NCBI GenBank assembly: GCA_051859825.1
Contig: JBHYFA010000001.1
Location: 36,268-100,267, forward strand
Length of the DNA stretch: 64,000 nucleotides
Origin: Schleiferiaceae bacterium
GTDB lineage: Bacteria; Bacteroidota; Bacteroidia; Flavobacteriales; Schleiferiaceae
Direction: 5' to 3'
Part shown: positions 21,590 through 36,254 of the stretch, piece by piece
Position numbering within the stretch: position 1 is the first letter of the stretch
Layout of the letters: each line of letters begins with the position of its first letter
Translations under genes and position numbers: made by a program
The notes under the pieces: generated by a model
What the model was told of the DNA's origin: nothing
The model's database searches: none
The model's input: only the letters and a program-made list of their open reading frames with translations

Positions 21590-21905
21590 TTCTAGCTAGT
21601 GACTGTCTATAAAGTAAAGAGTCTGCCTCAGAAAGTTCATAAGCAGGGCTTGCGAAGGTTGAAAAACAGTGAGTCCCGACAAGTCTTTGTCGGGATGACC
21701 TTTTTTCAACCGAGCATAACGCAGCTCTCGGACTTTAAAGACAGACACTAGTTAGAGTCTGTCCATAAAGTGCAAGTGGCTAGGCTAGAAAGTTCGAGAG
21801 CGAGGCTTGCGAAGGTTGAAAAACAGTGAGTTTACATTAGTAAATGACCTTTTTTTCAACCGAGCATAACGAAGCTATCGGACTTTATAGACAGACACTA
21901 GTTAA
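21590..21905. repeat. Tandem array (about 2.5 units of about 150 bp) of the full-length REP/MITE-like palindromic element
   Basis: Each unit carries terminal inverted repeats GTCTGTC(T/C)ATAAAGT...ACTTTA(T/A)AGACAGAC and a central hairpin (GGTTGAAAAACAGTGAGT...ACCTTTTTTCAACC). The last unit supplies the stop codon of the rluA-like gene. Confidence 0.7.
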
Positions 21906-27325: not shown

Positions 27326-28216
27326 ATGAAGACGAACTTCCTACGCTCATTGTATACTCAAGTAAGCAAAAATAGCATTCGCGCAATAGCCATATTTTCT
27401 ATTGTTTTCTCCCTATCTTCGTGTGAAGATGTCATTGATGTAGAACTGGAGGAAGGCCCTCTACAATTGGTGGTAAACGGGAGAATCACCGATGAAGCAC
27501 CGGCATCGGTAACCCTTAGCACAACCGCTCCTTTCTTTGAATCAGGACCAACCCCGAGAGTTTCCGGAGCCATTGTTCAATTATTTGAAGATGACAATCC
27601 ACTGGAAGCCCTAACCGAAGATCCTTCTAATCCCGGAAACTATATTGGAACAACGCCTGCCGAAATAGGCAAATCATACCATATCGAGATTCAATTACCC
27701 GAATCAGCTAGTCATTTTCAAGAGACATTTTGGAAGTCTATTCCAGAAAGGGTTTTTCCAATTTTTGAAATTGATTCCGTGTATTTGACTTTCATTCGCA
27801 CCCCTCCGCTCCCCGTTGGTCTTTACCTAAATTTTCAATTTCTTCGTCCTTTTCCATTCCCCTCAGGTGCGGCGTACCGCATTCAGAGAGAACTCAACGA
27901 TAGTGCTTTTTTGCAAGATTTCCTCTTCATCGAAAGTGCCGACGACCTTGAGTCGTTTCGTTTCCGTCCTCTTATAAACCAACTTATTGAGCCTGGAGAT
28001 ACCATTGCGCTTACCTTCAGCTCAATTACCTTACGATATCTCGAATATTTGACGGTAGTGTTTCAGCAGCTCAATTCCGGCGGACTATTCGACCCTCCAC
28101 CAGCACCTATACGCGGAAATGTTCAGCGTCAGGGTGGTGACGAGCGCGTAGCTCTAGGGTATTTTCACGCTTCATCCATTCGGCGAGCGGGGCTGAGAAA
28201 AGAGGAGGACGAGTAA
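27326..28216 (+). CDS. DUF4249-family lipoprotein (partner of the TonB-dependent receptor)
   Basis: Lipobox LSSC followed by EDVIDVELEEGPLQLVVNGRITDE, typical of the DUF4249 N-terminus. Directly downstream of the receptor gene. Confidence 0.55.
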   Translation: MKTNFLRSLYTQVSKNSIRAIAIFSIVFSLSSCEDVIDVELEEGPLQLVVNGRITDEAPASVTLSTTAPFFESGPTPRVSGAIVQLFEDDNPLEALTEDPSNPGNYIGTTPAEIGKSYHIEIQLPESASHFQETFWKSIPERVFPIFEIDSVYLTFIRTPPLPVGLYLNFQFLRPFPFPSGAAYRIQRELNDSAFLQDFLFIESADDLESFRFRPLINQLIEPGDTIALTFSSITLRYLEYLTVVFQQLNSGGLFDPPPAPIRGNVQRQGGDERVALGYFHASSIRRAGLRKEEDE

Positions 28217-29217
28217 TTCTTCCCCGCATTTTGCAATTTTTCTGCTATTCTCATACGAAGTTTTGGAGGCCCTAGCACTTCGATTGCATCACCAAACCCG
28301 AGTATCAAACGCTCTAGTTCGAAGTTCAATTGAACATTAATGGTAATTATGATACTCCGGTTTTCAAATTCTTTTTGTAGTTCCTGAGTATGATGAAGGG
28401 GCTTGGTGAGCACGTATGGTGCATTGGAAGAATTTACTTTTAAAGTTACCTTCCGAACCCTTGAATTGGGTGTTACGGTAACACCATATACCTTGGCAAA
28501 ATGAGCATCAAGATCGAAGTCTTCTTCCAAATACGGCGTTTTGAAATCATAATCCAACGCTTCAATGCGGTCTAAGGCCAAATTATTGACGGGGTGGGAA
28601 GCTTGGCGTTTACCCAGCACAAACCATCGATTATTGAACTCCTTCAGTGCGAAGGGGTGAAACAAAAAGCTGCTGGATTCCCTAGCCACGAAAGAACGGT
28701 AGGTAACAACCAGCACAACCTTTTTGATGATGGCTTGATAAATTTCGTCTAGGTAATGAAGCCCCTTTAGTCTTTCGTTTTTGTCGAAGTGAATAACCTG
28801 TCGCGACTGGTTTTTCTCCGCGTAAATTTTATCCTCCAACCGCTGAACGATATCCGAAACATCGCTAAAAAGGGAAAAATCTTTAAACTGCTTGAGCATG
28901 GAAACCGCTTCAGTCAACGTGTTGATGTCGGTATCATTAAGTGGTGTATCCGTAATGCTAAAATCGTCGTCGGCATAGCGGTAATACTTACGTTCGTAAA
29001 CTTCGATGGGCGCATTGTATCCCAACTTTTCACTGCGCATCAACTGTATATCGAGCTGTACGGTGCGCTTGCTGATGGGCACTTTTTTTCCTTCAAACTC
29101 GTACAGCGCATCCGAACAGGCTTCAATCAAATCTTCCAACGTCCACCTTCTAAAGCGGTTTTGCAGGCACTTATCAATTGTTTTATAACGGATTAAGGCG
29201 TTCTTGTTTTGCGGCAT
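28165..29217 (-). CDS. WYL-domain transcriptional regulator (wHTH-WYL-WCX architecture)
   Basis: N-terminal winged HTH (ALIRYKTIDKCLQ...KRTVQLDIQLMR). Central WYL-like region (...LVVTYRSF...HPFALKEFNNRWFVLG). 350 aa. Divergent from rtcB. Confidence 0.6.
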   Translation of the reverse strand: MPQNKNALIRYKTIDKCLQNRFRRWTLEDLIEACSDALYEFEGKKVPISKRTVQLDIQLMRSEKLGYNAPIEVYERKYYRYADDDFSITDTPLNDTDINTLTEAVSMLKQFKDFSLFSDVSDIVQRLEDKIYAEKNQSRQVIHFDKNERLKGLHYLDEIYQAIIKKVVLVVTYRSFVARESSSFLFHPFALKEFNNRWFVLGKRQASHPVNNLALDRIEALDYDFKTPYLEEDFDLDAHFAKVYGVTVTPNSRVRKVTLKVNSSNAPYVLTKPLHHTQELQKEFENRSIIITINVQLNFELERLILGFGDAIEVLGPPKLRMRIAEKLQNAGKNYSSSSFLSPARRMDEA

Positions 29218-29316
29218 TGCTGTTTATTTTCCACAAAAAAACAACCCCACAAGAAACTACGCAAATAGATTGCGCAGTCGTTTTAAAATATTTGCCCAAT
29301 CAAAAAAACGAACGTT

Positions 29317-30726
29317 ATGAAAACGATTACCGGAAAAGATTTGCGAAACATTGGATGGGAAGAAAATGCCAGTTTGGGACAAGCACTTAAAATCATCGAG
29401 TGCAGTAAAGTGAACATGTCGCTTGATACGTTGACGTTGTTGTACCAAAACCCGGAAGATTTTGTCATCAACCCCGTTTACGGTGAAATGGCCGAAATGC
29501 TGATTGCACATCGCGAAAGCATAAAAGACGACATTATTCCCATAGCCGAATCAGGTGGAGAATACAAAAAGTACGGCGAAGAACACATTGAAGAAGGTGC
29601 TCGTAAACAAATGGAAGTGGCCATGCGCTTGCCGGTAACGCGTGCGGGCGCCCTTATGCCCGATGCGCATCAAGGTTACGGCTTGCCCATTGGTGGGGTT
29701 TTGGCAACCAATAACGCCGTTATACCCTTTGGTGTAGGGGTGGATATTGGGTGTAGAATGGCGTTATCGGTATTCGATATGCCGGAAGATGATTTTTATC
29801 TCAACCACGATAAATTCAAACGTGAACTCATCGCTCATACGCGCTTTGGCGCGGGCCACGGGTTTGTACGCAAGCATCGCAGCGAACACGAAATCCTCGA
29901 CCATAAATTGTTTGACGAAAATCACTTCGTAGGCAATTTAAAAGACAAAGCCTGGAGTCAACTTGGGTCTTCTGGTGGAGGGAATCACTTTGTGGAATTT
30001 GGTATTCTGGATTTTGCCGAAGACGATGCCGAATTGAACATCCCTAAAGGAAAATACGTAGCCTTGCTTACCCACTCCGGATCACGCGGGTTGGGGGCAA
30101 CCATTGCCGGACATTACACCAAGCTCGCTAAGGAAGTGTGTAAACTCCCCGACGAAGCCAAGAATCTCGCCTATTTGGATTTAAACTCCGAACTCGGTCA
30201 GGAGTACTGGGCAGCGATGAACTTGGCCGGCGATTATGCGTCGGCTTGTCACGAGATCATCCACCAAAAACTGACCAAAGCGCTGGGATTAATCCCGTTG
30301 GCAAAAGTGGAAAACCACCACAACTTCGCCTGGAAGGAAACCATCAACGGCGAGGAAGTGATTGTTCATCGCAAAGGCGCAACACCGGCAGCCAAGGGTG
30401 TTATGGGCATCATTCCCGGCAGCATGACCGCCCCCGGATTTTTGGTACGCGGAAAGGGTGAAGCAGAAGCCATCAATTCCGCTTCGCACGGTGCAGGCCG
30501 ACAAATGAGTCGAACTAAAGCCAAGAAGTCGGTAACCCGCACCGAGCTTAAGCAGGTACTAAAAGACCACGGCGTTACCCTCATCGGTGCCGGGTTAGAC
30601 GAAGCGCCAATGGCCTATAAAGACATCCATTTGGTGATGGAAGCCCAAAAGGATTTGGTCGATGTCGTTGCCAAGTTTAGTCCAAAAATGGTTCGCATGG
30701 CCGATGATGGTAGTCGTGAAGATTAG
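29317..30726 (+). CDS. rtcB: RNA-splicing ligase RtcB
   Basis: Metal/GTP-binding motifs DAHQGYGLPIGGV, GGGNHF, HRKGAT, SHGAGR (His nucleophile region). 469 aa. Confidence 0.9.
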   Translation: MKTITGKDLRNIGWEENASLGQALKIIECSKVNMSLDTLTLLYQNPEDFVINPVYGEMAEMLIAHRESIKDDIIPIAESGGEYKKYGEEHIEEGARKQMEVAMRLPVTRAGALMPDAHQGYGLPIGGVLATNNAVIPFGVGVDIGCRMALSVFDMPEDDFYLNHDKFKRELIAHTRFGAGHGFVRKHRSEHEILDHKLFDENHFVGNLKDKAWSQLGSSGGGNHFVEFGILDFAEDDAELNIPKGKYVALLTHSGSRGLGATIAGHYTKLAKEVCKLPDEAKNLAYLDLNSELGQEYWAAMNLAGDYASACHEIIHQKLTKALGLIPLAKVENHHNFAWKETINGEEVIVHRKGATPAAKGVMGIIPGSMTAPGFLVRGKGEAEAINSASHGAGRQMSRTKAKKSVTRTELKQVLKDHGVTLIGAGLDEAPMAYKDIHLVMEAQKDLVDVVAKFSPKMVRMADDGSRED

Positions 30727-30750
30727 GCAATCCATGCGACACCGTAAAAT

Positions 30751-30876
30751 CATAGTTGCTAGGCTAAAAATTTCGAGAGCAAGGCTTGCGAATGATTAAA
30801 AAGCGGAGTTTACGTTTGGTAAATGAGCATTTTTAAGCATTCGCGTAACGCAGCTATCGGAATTTTTAGACAGCAA
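30751..30876. repeat. Full-length variant of the REP/MITE-like element with a compensatory central hairpin
   Basis: TAGTTGCTAGGCTAAAAATTTCGAGAGC...GCGAATGATTAAAAA / TTTTTAAGCATTCGC...CAGCTATCGGAATTTTTAGACAGCAAC. The stem halves co-vary relative to the 21.6-kb copies. Starts 25 nt after the rtcB stop. Confidence 0.65.
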
Positions 30877-31011
30877 CAAATATTGAGGGAGGCTTGATGC
30901 GTGTTTCTGTATAGCACCATTGCCGTGTGCGCTCCACGTGGGTGGATTGCGCTTCACCGTTCACCTCCTCTTGATGGTTTTCGGTCGTTTTCCTCAAAAT
31001 GACCACCAAGC

Positions 31012-31110
31012 GCTATATGTCGTGGGTTCGATTCCCACCTGTGATTTTCACAGTAGCTCAGTTGGTTAGAGCAATAGTTTATGGCGGAGGTTCGAATCCT
31101 CCACGCAGTT
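31012..31110 (+). pseudogene. tRNA-derived fragments: X 3'-half (anticodon 3'-stem, variable loop, T-arm GTGGGTTCGATTCCCAC, acceptor), then X 5'-half (acceptor, D-arm TAGCTCAGTTGGTTAGAGC), fused to Y T-arm (GGAGGTTCGAATCCTCC) and acceptor
   Basis: Canonical D-arm and T-arm consensus on the + strand, but no complete cloverleaf. 31047-31053 pairs with 31039-31045, and 31103-31109 pairs with 31116-31122, so the 3' halves precede their cognate 5' halves. Confidence 0.4.
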
Positions 31111-31115
31111 GTAAA

Positions 31116-31190
31116 GTTGCGTTAGCTCAGTGGCAGAGCACTACACTGTTAATGTAGTTTGACTGGAGGTTGTATTCGCTCCTTAAACGA
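31116..31190 (+). tRNA. Degenerate tRNA-Asn(GTT)-like gene (probable pseudogene)
   Basis: Acceptor GTTGCGT. D-arm TAGCTCAGTGGCAGAGC. Intact anticodon stem-loop CTACA-CTGTTAA-TGTAG (anticodon GTT). The T-arm is corrupted (GGAGGTTGTATTCGCTCC, an apparent local inversion of the TTCGAAT loop) and no matching 3' acceptor follows. Confidence 0.35.
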
Positions 31191-31453
31191 ATACGCTTTT
31201 GAGAAACGCGTTGGATGTGGCCGGTTGCGGCAAATGGCACAAGTGGTCATTTGCACAACAGCCCAAATCCAACCAGCAAGGAAACCTCTGTTCGTCCAGA
31301 CGCGGCAAATCCTTGGGGTATGACAATGCTATGACTTGAAAAAGACCCGCAAGCATTTGCTGTGAAACGACCGCAAGCTTCCTTCCGTTGCGATGAAGGT
31401 GGCTTACATTCAATGCGTTTCTTTTTTTATTAACCCTTAAAACCTCAACGATT

Positions 31454-32548
31454 ATGAAAATTGTTACCATCAAAACCGCTCAGATTGGTTTACTTATTAG
31501 AAACCGTAAAGTTGATCGACTTCTTTACGAAGGCACCCACTTGACTTTGGGTTTGCACAAGGTAGAAATACACGAAACCCGCGAATTATTTATCTCCCAA
31601 ATCGACATCGACATCTTGTTGGAAAGCCCTTTAATGGCGAAGGCTTTAGAAATTGTTGACGTTCCCGAAAGTCACATCTGCATGGTGTTTAAAAAAGGCA
31701 ATTTGCACAACGTATTGCCCGAAGGGAAGTACGCCTTCTGGAAAGATAAACACCCTTTCAGCTTTCGCGTATTGAACACTGCCGGTATGGATATCCCTGC
31801 CGATCTTCCCCGTCATCAGTTGGAGCACTACCTCATGCAACCTTTTGTACGGAAGTTTAACGTGGCCAATGCGCATACCGGGGTGTTGTTTGTGGACGGG
31901 AAATTTCACAGCACTTTCAAATCAGGAAGCGTGTTTTTCTGGAACAACCGCACTTCCATGGAGATGCAAAGCGTTGACTTGCGTCGTCAGCATTTGGAAA
32001 TATCCGGGCAAGAATTGCTTACCAAGGACAAGGCCGGCATTCGGATCAACTTCTTTGTGCAATTCCGCGTGGTGGACATTGAAAAAGCCATCATTGACAA
32101 CAAGGATTTCCGCAATCAGTTGTACGTATTGATGCAGTTGGCTTTGCGTGCCTACATAGGCGGCTACAATCTCGACGAGTTGTTGAGCAAAAAAGACCGC
32201 ATTACCGACATGATATTGGAGGCCACCGCCGAGAAGATTGCTGCTTTAGGTATTGAAGTTTCCGACGCCGGTATTCGCGACATCATTTTGCCCGGCGACA
32301 TGAAGGAGATTATGAATCAGGTGTTGATTGCGGAGAAAAAGGCGCAGGCCAACAGCATTTTGCGTCGTGAAGAAACCGCATCCACCCGAAGCTTACTCAA
32401 CACCGCCAAGTTGATGCAAGACAACGACATGTTGTGGAAGCTCAAGGAGATGGAGTACGTGGAAAAAATATCCGAACGCATTGGCGAAATCACCATTTCC
32501 GGAAGGGGAAATGTAGTGAATGAGTTGAAGGAAATTTTTGTGAAGTAA
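31454..32548 (+). CDS. SPFH/band-7 (stomatin-prohibitin-like) domain protein with an N-terminal extension of about 170 aa
   Basis: C-terminal half has the SPFH fold pattern (TKDKAGIRINFFVQFRVVDIEKAI...ALRAYIGGYNLDELL...KIAALGIEV). 364 aa. Confidence 0.7.
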   Translation: MKIVTIKTAQIGLLIRNRKVDRLLYEGTHLTLGLHKVEIHETRELFISQIDIDILLESPLMAKALEIVDVPESHICMVFKKGNLHNVLPEGKYAFWKDKHPFSFRVLNTAGMDIPADLPRHQLEHYLMQPFVRKFNVANAHTGVLFVDGKFHSTFKSGSVFFWNNRTSMEMQSVDLRRQHLEISGQELLTKDKAGIRINFFVQFRVVDIEKAIIDNKDFRNQLYVLMQLALRAYIGGYNLDELLSKKDRITDMILEATAEKIAALGIEVSDAGIRDIILPGDMKEIMNQVLIAEKKAQANSILRREETASTRSLLNTAKLMQDNDMLWKLKEMEYVEKISERIGEITISGRGNVVNELKEIFVK

Positions 32549-34510: not shown

Positions 34511-35029
34511 TTACCAGTTTACAATGGCTCGGTTGAGAATATTCTCTGCCAGTTCTTCGTTGATGATGCGCACCAAATTGTCTTCAATATTACTAAAACT
34601 TTCGGCAGCATCAAAATCTGCGAAACGCGAAAACCGCTCTTCGTAACTTTTTTTTGGCTCAAGGCGGTTTTCAAATTGCACTTGTATGGCAATGGTCAAG
34701 CGGCTTTGCGCGGCAACCTGCCCAGCTGTGGGAGCAATGGGCGTAATTCGATACTCAACAATGCTCCCCGAAAAATGAAAATCACCTTCATCGTCATCAA
34801 CAAGACGAAGATTGGTTTGCTGTAAAAAAATGTCTTTTACAGCCTCAGTGAGAAATTGGCTGAGGTTTGGATTTACCAGCGGGGCGTTGTTGGGAAAACG
34901 CTCTACACTAAAGGTTTTTGCATCACCCACATCACCGCCTGTAAAGGAGTACCCACCGGTGCATTGGTAGAAAACAATGCTTAGAAGCGCGATGAGTGGA
35001 AGAGCGATTATTTTTAACTTAGAGGTCAT
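34511..35029 (-). CDS. LptE-like lipoprotein (hypothetical)
   Basis: Start at MTSKLKIIALPLIALLSIVFYQC (lipobox). Conserved position between the sigma-54 regulator and secG in Flavobacteriia-type synteny. Confidence 0.45.
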   Translation of the reverse strand: MTSKLKIIALPLIALLSIVFYQCTGGYSFTGGDVGDAKTFSVERFPNNAPLVNPNLSQFLTEAVKDIFLQQTNLRLVDDDEGDFHFSGSIVEYRITPIAPTAGQVAAQSRLTIAIQVQFENRLEPKKSYEERFSRFADFDAAESFSNIEDNLVRIINEELAENILNRAIVNW

Positions 35030-36254
35030 ACTGCTTGATTTTTCGGTAGAGCGTTCGTTCAGAAATCCCCAATTCTTGAGCGGCAGCTTTACGTTTACCA
35101 TTGTTTTTCTCCAGAGATTTCCGAATGAGCTCCTTCTCGTGATCTTCCAACGAAAGACTTTCTTCTACCTCTTCAAAACTTGATTCACTCTCCGAAATAC
35201 TCGGAATGCTCATAGGGGGTGATTTATAATGATTATCGTCAAAGTCGTCATCCATTACATCATTGCTGAATACTCGTTTCATCATTTTCGGATGACGCTG
35301 CAGCATTTGAACGTTATCAGCACCATTGAGCAACTCGTAGGTAATTGATTTTAAGTCTTCCACCTCTTTTCTAAGATCGAAAAGAAAGGATAGAAGCATT
35401 TCTCTTTCAGCGGCAAAATCGTTAGTCTGCTCTTGTTTACGGGAAATGGGTGCGGGAAGCGTAGGGTCGCTAATTTGTGGTAAATATTTTCGCAGGGTAT
35501 CGGCACTGATTTCTTTGTTTACCTCCAAAACCGACATTTGTTCTACTAAATTCCGGAGCTGACGGATATTGCCTGGCCAGCGATACTTGAGAAGCAAATG
35601 CTTGGCTTCTTCGGTAAGTTGAATGGGCGTGGTGTGGTATTTCACACTGAAATCGGAGGCGAACTTGCGAAAAAGCAATTGAATATCTTCAAAGCGGTCG
35701 CGCAGGGGTGGAATACTAATTTCTACCGTGTTGAGACGATAGTACAAGTCTTCACGGAATTTGCCTTTTTCCACCGCACCAAGCATATTCTCGTTGGTAG
35801 CGGCTACGATGCGCACATTGGTTTTTTGAATCTTCGATGATCCTACCTTGATAAATTCACCGGTTTCTAGTACACGCAATAATCGCACTTGGGTGGCGTG
35901 CGGAAGTTCCACCACTTCATCCAGAAAAATAGTGCCGCCATCAGCCTCTTCAAAGTAGCCTTTGCGGGTGCCGGTAGCCCCGGTGAAGGCTCCCTTTTCG
36001 TGACCAAAGAGCTCACTGTCAATAGTACCCTCAGGGATAGCACCGCAGTTTACCGCAATATACGGATTGTGCTTACGGTGCGATAAATGATGAATAATGC
36101 GGGGGATGCTTTCCTTTCCTACACCACTTTCTCCCGACACCAATACGGAAATATCGGTAGGTGCAACCCTCCTTGCCTTTTCCAATGCACGATTAAACAA
36201 GTCGGAATTTCCAATGAGGCCAAATCGCGATTTAATAGATTGTATGTCGCTCAT
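35019..36254 (-). CDS. Sigma-54-dependent transcriptional activator (AAA+ enhancer-binding protein, Fis-type HTH) lacking an N-terminal receiver domain
   Basis: Walker A GESGVGKE. GAFTGA motif (ELFGHEKGAFTGA). C-terminal HTH AAQELGISERTLYRKI. The AAA+ core starts within the first 30 aa. Confidence 0.85.
   Translation of the reverse strand: MSDIQSIKSRFGLIGNSDLFNRALEKARRVAPTDISVLVSGESGVGKESIPRIIHHLSHRKHNPYIAVNCGAIPEGTIDSELFGHEKGAFTGATGTRKGYFEEADGGTIFLDEVVELPHATQVRLLRVLETGEFIKVGSSKIQKTNVRIVAATNENMLGAVEKGKFREDLYYRLNTVEISIPPLRDRFEDIQLLFRKFASDFSVKYHTTPIQLTEEAKHLLLKYRWPGNIRQLRNLVEQMSVLEVNKEISADTLRKYLPQISDPTLPAPISRKQEQTNDFAAEREMLLSFLFDLRKEVEDLKSITYELLNGADNVQMLQRHPKMMKRVFSNDVMDDDFDDNHYKSPPMSIPSISESESSFEEVEESLSLEDHEKELIRKSLEKNNGKRKAAAQELGISERTLYRKIKQYDL

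Follow-up and report, generated by a model that had tools for sequence, protein, structure and literature searches.

Predictions made by Burroughs and Aravind in 2016, as summarised in a later preprint on the structure of YrlA, place the RNA ligase RtcB of some bacteria beside a protein of the Band-7 type and a putative 'band 7-associated tRNA' (bioRxiv 10.1101/312249). In that summary, RtcB, Band-7 protein and tRNA-like RNA are taken as a predicted repair system with the RNA as cofactor, the tRNA-like RNA YrlA is described as occasionally lying beside a Band-7 protein, and the Band-7/RtcB/tRNA prediction is presented without experimental validation (bioRxiv 10.1101/312249). The rtc locus of Pseudomonas aeruginosa likewise contains an SPFH gene. 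A locus from a Schleiferiaceae bacterium (GenBank assembly GCA_051859825.1, contig JBHYFA010000001.1) bears on how repair modules of RtcB, Ro60 and Y RNA are controlled outside the RtcR paradigm, and on what they repair. The whole stretch of DNA analysed, 64 kb in length, is called the window, and all coordinates are positions in it. By its gene and RNA content, the locus is a member of the predicted RtcB/Band-7/tRNA-like-RNA system type, with a WYL transcription factor replacing RtcR.

It is considered likely that this WYL factor controls an rtcB / RNA / SPFH cassette through a palindrome in the intergenic region, a judgement which concerns control as such and excludes its direction and the ligand. 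The initial annotation of the stretch, made from the sequence alone, had proposed an RNA-damage-sensing RtcB module of two genes under a WYL sensor. The comparative evidence, which includes the conservation of the palindrome, speaks strongly for control by the WYL factor; sensing of RNA damage does not stand as it was stated, since the characterised relatives sense single-stranded DNA (ssDNA), and is regarded as plausible. Both genes of the proposed module are present, and its extent had been drawn too short: it reaches at least position 32548, beyond the 28165–30726 interval first flagged, and includes the operator, a tRNA-like RNA of ~550 nt and an SPFH/Band-7 gene, all of which had been overlooked. 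The features of the locus are as follows.

28165–29217, minus strand: gene of a wHTH-WYL-WCX regulator (wHTH, winged helix-turn-helix), 350 aa, DriD-like
29256–29278, no strand: candidate operator palindrome, 23 bp
29287–29294, plus strand: −7 promoter box AATATTTG for rtcB, Bacteroidota-type
29317–30726, plus strand: rtcB, 469 aa, PF01139
30745–30880, plus strand: long hairpin, copy of a dispersed palindromic repeat, identified by minimum free energy (MFE) and z-score
30886–31431, plus strand: structured non-coding RNA, or structured SPFH leader, identified by covariation and a covariance model
31454–32548, plus strand: SPFH/Band-7 gene, 364 aa, PF01145

The product of 28165–29217 is a wHTH-WYL-WCX transcription factor. 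Pfam assigned the WYL (PF13280, 34.9 bits, cut-off 21.8) and WCX (PF25583, 49.6 bits, cut-off 23.9) domains, and a generic WYL profile of PADLOC was matched with E = 7.5e-25; the NCBIfam search gave no informative match, and the N-terminus matched no HTH family in Pfam. The missing domain was recognised in an AlphaFold model, in which residues 5–81 form a wHTH of three helices and a beta-wing (predicted local distance difference test, pLDDT, 80–90), followed by three linker helices and the WYL domain at residues 150–230 (pLDDT 80–91), which aligns with the C-domain of DriD. A model computed from 16 close homologs (pLDDT 48) was set aside without fold search; the model used was built from a 38-sequence alignment including a 44%-identical Chitinophagaceae clade, and reached a mean pLDDT of 79, with 80–92 in each of the three domains. 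Searched against the PDB with Foldseek, it gave 32 significant matches, every one to a wHTH-WYL-WCX factor, ranked DriD (1e-15), PafBC (3e-12), BrxR/CapW (~3e-7) and WYL1 (2e-5, structure 6oaw), so that the WYL fold assigned in the initial annotation and put forward there for structural checking was borne out. Full-length alignments to DriD, PafBC, BrxR and CapW covered 340–350 columns, the C-domain matched that of DriD with a TM-score (template modelling score) of 0.74–0.77, and a PDB profile search returned matches to the WCX regions of DriD and PafC. More than 7,700 homologs were found, with 65–68% identity across Flavobacterium. At its 3′ end the gene overlaps a convergent DUF4249 gene by 52 bp (28165–28216), and the final ~15 residues of the WYL protein are unconserved and were modelled with low confidence.

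The divergent gene encodes an RtcB protein (PF01139, E = 5e-85). Alignment with the solved structures of TTHA1785 and PH1602 showed all metal-binding and guanylylation motifs to be present (MPDAHQGYG, GVGVDIGCR, GGGNHFVE, LTHSGSRGLG, ENHHNFAW and SASHGAGR). An N-terminal extension of ~95 aa is shared with the Flavobacterium orthologs, and the protein scores under the NCBIfam equivalog cut-offs, which places it in a distinct subfamily carrying this extension. The divergent arrangement of the WYL gene and rtcB was confirmed at the positions listed, the distance first given as 100 bp being 99 bp (29218–29316).

Neither partner of the canonical Rtc system accompanies this rtcB, as had been claimed and as was verified by Pfam scans covering essentially all open reading frames (ORFs) of 150 aa or more across the window: no RTC-family match (RtcA) was obtained, nor any match for CARF/RtcR, TROVE/Ro60 or archease. 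A canonical Rtc system was rejected on the absence of both RtcR and RtcA from the window. The only sigma-54 activator of the window, encoded at 35019–36254, ~4 kb off among lptE-like and miaB genes, was ruled out as a remote RtcR, as it is without a CARF or other N-terminal domain and lies in housekeeping surroundings. PADLOC profiles for defence systems matched in the window through generic WYL models only, and the remaining window is ordinary Bacteroidota chromosome, with proteins tailed for the type IX secretion system and a TonB-dependent receptor.

The palindrome at 29256–29278, ACTACGCAA-ATAGA-TTGCGCAGT, occupies the exact centre of the 99-bp spacer, its core being 43 bp from each ATG. 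Its core pattern CGCAA-N5-TTGCG has a single match in the 64 kb, at a chance expectation of 0.13. The same motif was found in 77 of 80 loci around WYL orthologs, often in 2–3 copies per locus, each ahead of an RNA-repair cassette, and with one copy ~42 bp ahead of rtcB, a position shared with the window; in its extended form the motif has the consensus ACTRCGCAA-N5-TTGCGYAGT. Copies also precede SPFH units distant from any WYL gene, which points to a dispersed regulon. In the locus of the 44%-identical WYL ortholog, both half-sites share a symmetric substitution, ACTGTGCAA-N5-TTGCACAGA, with the spacing kept, and such a symmetric change is what a dimeric factor co-evolving with its site would be expected to produce.

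The position of the palindrome relative to the promoter is equally regular. At 78 sites an AnnTTTG −7 box follows the palindrome core at a fixed offset of 13 nt, and the window has the modal spacing; the palindrome thereby lies upstream of the inferred transcription start, centred near −32. By sequence inspection, no TTTG −33 element stands at the canonical distance from the rtcB −7 box. A scan for sigma-70 promoters and terminators gave results at the level of shuffled sequence, with a model ill-suited to Bacteroidota promoters. Promoters regulated by DriD are likewise without a −35 element; the DriD site overlaps the place where it would stand and keeps a constant spacing to the −10 element.

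For the conservation of the gene pairing, the 80 genomic loci around WYL orthologs (designated L001 and so on) were compared by clustering their ORFs and annotating the clusters with Pfam. Within 6 kb on the WYL-divergent side, rtcB was found in 52 of the 80, and a hallmark RNA-repair gene (RtcB, Ro60, Pnkp/Hen1, RlaP, Rnl1 or SPFH) was present in 63; if an unannotated protein of 746 aa described below is counted too, RNA-repair cargo is present in 72. Ro60/TROVE (14/80) and the 746-aa protein (34/80) are carried on this side, along with RlaP nucleotidyltransferases, Pnkp/Hen1, a T4 Rnl1-like ligase, SPFH and TatD. The orthologs from Chitinophagaceae, a second class, were divergent from repair cassettes in three out of three cases (Ro60-DinB-RlaP-RlaP; Ro60-x-RtcB; Band_7-RlaP-RlaP-RtcB). 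The flanks differ wholly between the window (TonB receptor and DUF4249) and Flavobacterium (MarR and FadB), while the WYL-repair linkage is kept. The link between RtcB and SPFH was also seen in L008, L067, many metagenomic loci and one Chitinophagaceae contig. The adjacency of the WYL gene and rtcB, whose conservation in relatives the initial annotation had proposed to examine, is thus not due to chance; functional coupling is indicated because the cargo shuffles within RNA repair, the flanks differ and the Chitinophagaceae repeat the linkage.

RtcB itself is not a fixed part of these cassettes. It is replaced by Pnkp/Hen1 or an Rnl1-like ligase together with RlaP in L005 (1769–5181), L023, L062, L063, L071, L075, L032 and L036, and since the same WYL gene and operator front these cassettes, the regulator is tied to RNA repair generally, not to RtcB specifically. 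The 746-aa protein (L003 2288–4528, L014 2130–4370 and 32 other Flavobacterium loci) occupies the operator-preceded slot of Ro60, and the two are mutually exclusive across loci. It belongs to no Pfam family, a weak Prok-RING_4 match being its only one, and upstream of its gene a match of ~117 nt to the tRNA model carries an insertion of ~45 nt in the anticodon region. This protein may be a Ro60 analogue.

Further features of the comparison loci were recorded. In 64 of the 80 loci, the WYL gene is directly preceded on its own strand by a 204-aa gene without Pfam match (L002 5122–5736), which neither the window nor L001 contains. In seven Flavobacterium loci (L041, L049, L050, L056, L057, L059 and L064) the WYL gene stands beside SprB/PorP gliding-motility genes, with the operator in 6/7 and no repair cargo within 6 kb; their regulon presumably sits elsewhere in those genomes. 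A Flavo-1 RNA (RF01705, 61 bits, above the gathering score) is located at L006 5895–5976, just upstream of the WYL gene. A HEPN gene of the AbiV family, encoding a predicted RNase/abortive-infection domain, is found within two WYL-controlled cassettes (L045 328–957 and L067), which hints at a pairing of toxin and repair. The literature search turned up no Flavobacterium expression data covering this locus; co-occurrences of WYL and RtcB in the literature were mostly reference-list coincidences and were discarded.

Downstream of rtcB, the SPFH gene follows on the same strand after a gap of 727 bp, which holds no credible ORF and is empty in public gene calls. ARAGORN detected no tRNA in the window, and Rfam gave no match in it at gathering thresholds. 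An RNA surfaced only through an E-value search of the gap (851 nt) with Rfam: the YrlA model (RF02553) matched 30992–31100 with 49.4 bits (E = 6e-10; gathering score 69), and partial tRNA matches scored 28.9 and 24.9 bits. The RNA was dissected into the following parts.

30901–30922, plus strand: invariant 22-mer GTGTTTCTGTATAGCACCATTG within the 5′ domain
31010–31167, plus strand: double tRNA-like core
31022–31073, plus strand: module A, with T-arm (31022–31038), closed acceptor-like hairpin (31039–31053) and D-arm (31054–31073)
31086–31157, plus strand: module B, with T-arm (31086–31102), closed acceptor-like hairpin (31103–31122), D-arm (31123–31140) and anticodon-like arm (31141–31157)
31418–31431, plus strand: T-run that closes the conserved tail, stopping 22 nt before the SPFH ATG

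For comparison, 80 metagenomic loci were fetched with SPFH as the anchor, and the RNA proved to be conserved ahead of SPFH in dozens of such loci. Wherever the SPFH protein was at least ~51% identical and enough upstream DNA was available, SPFH was always preceded by the operator, the 22-mer and two T-arm motifs, with the 22-mer ~100 nt downstream of the operator. RNAalifold folded an alignment of 44 sequences into a consensus of 57 pairs, and compensatory changes were seen at 34 of these; 96.6% of cells were paired, as against 41–47% with the partners slid, and 313 cells were doubly changed, as against 93 in shuffles, none of 500 shuffles reaching any observed measure. A covariance model of the core located it once in the window (135.6 bits, E = 8e-42); in most WYL loci the model also picked out related elements, with weaker scores, next to Ro60, the 746-aa gene and other cargo. 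In Chitinophagaceae, tandem arrays of 4–5 tRNA-like elements (19–60 bits) lie beside Ro60 (L163 2900–3684, L164 3006–3613).

In module A, the order of the arms is the permuted topology of YrlA, and all three helices covary. Module B, whose helices covary as well and to which the two partial tRNA matches of Rfam belong, is a complete, circularly permuted tRNA mimic. Its anticodon-like loop (31146–31152) reads CUGUUAA, which is Asn-like, and in homologs the 7-nt loop keeps U33 and purine-37 while the triplet varies by lineage. Among L081–L160 the triplets were UUU (14), CAA (13), GAA (6) and GUU (~5), counts which include some genuine upstream tRNA genes; this variation suggests mimicry of different tRNAs. 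The RNA was rejected as a bona fide YrlA on its sub-gathering score, an unsupported Ro60-binding stem and the lack of an rsr neighbour.

Between rtcB and the RNA, the hairpin at 30745–30880 (~135 nt, MFE −50.8 kcal mol−1, z = −5.8) occupies the slot that, in L008 and L067, holds a separate operator and promoter for the RNA. A second copy, ~80% identical, lies at ~21762–21898 of the window, with a weaker partial match at 979–1007. The second operator seen between rtcB and the RNA in L008 and L067 was not found in the window, so that transcription from the rtcB promoter probably continues through the RNA and SPFH. The SPFH domain itself (PF01145, E = 7.6e-29) spans residues 137–306 of the 364-aa protein. 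No transmembrane segment was found in the protein, the maximal Kyte–Doolittle value over 19 residues being 1.19, and with no hydrophobic segment it is predicted to be soluble. It is the presumed protein partner of the RNA.

These data are consistent with the following mechanism. The wHTH-WYL-WCX factor would bind the palindrome at 29256–29278 as a homodimer. The palindrome lies in the place of a −33 element, with fixed spacing to the rtcB −7 box and 43 bp from the start codon of the factor itself. A single-stranded nucleic-acid ligand on the WYL domain would then switch rtcB transcription and probably also that of the downstream RNA and SPFH gene, which are without a second operator. RtcB would join 2′,3′-cyclic-phosphate or 3′-phosphate ends to 5′-OH ends, and the RNA would probably assemble with the soluble SPFH protein into a particle comparable to that of Ro60 and YrlA, a scaffold or cofactor by which damaged tRNAs would be presented, mimicked or protected.

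Several points weigh against this picture. The majority of the 80 WYL loci come from one genus, so that the counts are non-independent, a weakness that the shuffled cargo and the Chitinophagaceae loci lessen. All characterised wHTH-WYL-WCX regulators (DriD, PafBC and CapW) sense ssDNA. A single palindrome in a bidirectional promoter of regulator and operon is the layout of the CapW/BrxR repressors, too. The Ro60-binding stem of YrlA is unsupported in the window RNA, the outer-stem pairs being non-canonical in the cmscan alignment. Finally, the repeat hairpin separates rtcB from the RNA, and with no terminator or promoter assignable there, co-transcription is uncertain.

With regard to the direction of control, ligand-dependent activation of the DriD/PafBC kind is slightly favoured over de-repression, because the promoter geometry matches that of DriD and the structural likeness is stronger to activators. 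A repressor of the CapW/BrxR type, which without ligand would sit on the palindrome and block both promoters until released by the ligand, is given just under an even chance. It would account for the divergent regulator and operon sharing one palindrome in a short bidirectional promoter and for the overlap of the operator with the core promoter region, and WYL one-component factors have been called negative regulators by the Aravind laboratory (PMC9503650). Less easily reconciled with a repressor are the fold likeness to DriD and PafBC, 8 and 5 orders better than to BrxR/CapW, the DriD-like length of 350 aa with three linker helices, and a site that takes the place of a missing −33 element and keeps a constant spacing to the −7 box, as in DriD promoters.

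As for the ligand, chances are judged to be even that it consists of RNA fragments from cleaved tRNA or rRNA, a reading favoured because of the regulon content; the precedent of the family favours ssDNA. The factor would in the latter case respond to DNA damage or to phage and prophage, with RNA repair as one branch of that response, and this is held as a tentative alternative. ssDNA is bound through the WYL domain in DriD, PafBC and CapW; DriD bound ssRNA more weakly than ssDNA, and poly-U was not bound by CapW. In DriD, Tyr240 and Arg288 are positions that clash with a 2′-OH. In Salmonella, exposure to DNA-damaging agents induces the rsr-yrlBA-rtcBA operon. The residues S175, R197-W198 and D216-R217, invariant in both WYL clades, resemble the Ser/Arg pocket and the RWHVR motif of CapW, a correspondence drawn by motif and not by structural superposition. 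ssDNA sensing is harder to square with the operator-preceded cassettes: all of those seen carry RNA-repair or RNA-associated genes and none a recA-type gene, unlike the regulons of DriD and PafBC. Moreover, WYL1, the WYL-domain protein of structure 6oaw among the Foldseek matches, works with the RNA-targeting Cas13d and binds RNA. To our knowledge, RNA sensing has so far been demonstrated for no wHTH-WYL-WCX factor. Also counting against ssDNA is a prediction of the Aravind laboratory in which RNA fragments with cyclic ends are the signal for WYL factors, some of these factors being regulators of RNA repair (PMC9503650).

That the element at 30886–31431 is instead a long, structured and cis-regulatory 5′ leader in the SPFH mRNA, or is processed out of a transcript spanning rtcB and SPFH, is considered rather unlikely. 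Such a leader would explain why, in loci with enough upstream DNA and an SPFH protein at least ~51% identical, the element always directly precedes SPFH on its strand, lying between operator/promoter and SPFH start, and why no convincing intrinsic terminator precedes SPFH. A trans-acting RNA is better matched by the agreement of the tRNA-like modules with YrlA and tRNA models, by the conserved T-run that closes the element ahead of the SPFH ATG, and by the related tRNA-like elements beside Ro60 and other cargo, which take varied positions, including downstream of genes. The Band-7-associated tRNA-like element is treated as a trans-acting RNA partner in the summary referred to above (bioRxiv 10.1101/312249).

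A more far-reaching extension, in which the tRNA-mimic RNA would serve as sentinel or bait, is regarded as improbable. A ribotoxin would cut the bait held by SPFH, the WYL factor would sense the fragment, and the cassette would thereby induce itself and carry out repair. The triplets of module B, Asn-like GUU here and Lys-like UUU, Leu-like CAA and Phe-like GAA elsewhere, belong to kinds of tRNAs targeted by anticodon nucleases. If this were true, the factor would be the first RNA-sensing wHTH-WYL-WCX transcription factor.

Incidental synteny, with the WYL protein regulating, for example, the convergent TonB-receptor/DUF4249 genes and the palindrome belonging to another factor, can draw on the origin of most comparison loci from a single genus but is very improbable, as the linkage persists despite different flanks with cargo shuffling only among RNA-repair genes, recurs in Chitinophagaceae and is accompanied by the palindrome in 77/80 loci, the palindrome changes symmetrically in the divergent WYL clade, and DUF4249, convergent and overlapping the WYL 3′ end, is not promoter-linked.

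This WYL subfamily provides a clean test system for whether a WYL transcription factor can sense RNA damage and for the role of tRNA-mimic RNAs in RNA repair, with a defined 23-bp operator and, in the loci examined, a regulon of RNA-repair cassettes only. The subfamily is conserved across Flavobacteriia and Chitinophagia, and it occurs in Flavobacterium johnsoniae, a species amenable to genetics, whose locus (L014) comprises the WYL gene, the 204-aa gene, the operator, a tRNA-like RNA, the 746-aa gene and rtcB. A further result is a model, backed by covariation, for a tRNA-mimic RNA without a family of its own in Rfam 15, which makes the idea of an RNA-plus-scaffold cofactor (SPFH here, Ro60 elsewhere) directly testable. 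The operator, the DriD-like promoter geometry, the dispersed regulon and the two-module RNA architecture were not found in the searchable literature, beyond the reach of which lies the 2016 original.

Among known regulators, DriD of Caulobacter crescentus and PafBC of mycobacteria share the three-domain fold and an inverted-repeat target, and in both the site overlaps a missing −35/−33 element at a fixed distance from the −10/−7 box, as in the window. They differ from the WYL protein of the window in sequence (14–22% identity) and in regulon, which is DNA repair and cell division as against RNA repair, and the window host, a member of the Bacteroidota, has a promoter consensus different from that of their hosts. 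CapW and BrxR have the same domain architecture, a divergent gene and a palindrome in a short bidirectional promoter, with autoregulation likely; their fold likeness is weaker (E ~3e-7), they comprise ~270–290 aa instead of 350, and the window is without a defence system of the kind they accompany.

The SPFH protein of the window is without the membrane anchor typical of SPFH members of the stomatin, HflKC and flotillin type. With YrlA (RF02553), module A of the RNA shares the order of T-arm, closed acceptor-like stem and D-arm; unlike YrlA, the window RNA has a further, complete tRNA module in permuted order, along with a large 5′ domain that is conserved. In the RtcR-RtcBA system of E. coli and Salmonella, RtcB is likewise controlled by a dedicated divergent regulator with a nucleic-acid-sensing domain, but RtcR is a CARF/sigma-54 enhancer-binding protein, whereas the window regulator is a wHTH-WYL-WCX factor at a promoter of the sigma-A type. 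The Salmonella rsr-yrlBA-rtcBA operon also carries a tRNA-like RNA, YrlA, as the window does; unlike that operon, the window is without RtcA and Ro60, and SPFH fills the scaffold slot. The closest likeness in gene content is to the RtcB/Band-7/b7a-tRNA systems, the window RNA being likened to the b7a-tRNA through summaries of the 2016 paper: here as there, RtcB lies near a Band-7/SPFH gene with a tRNA-like RNA between them, and the cargo is shuffled in a modular manner with Ro60, RlaP and Pnkp/Hen1.

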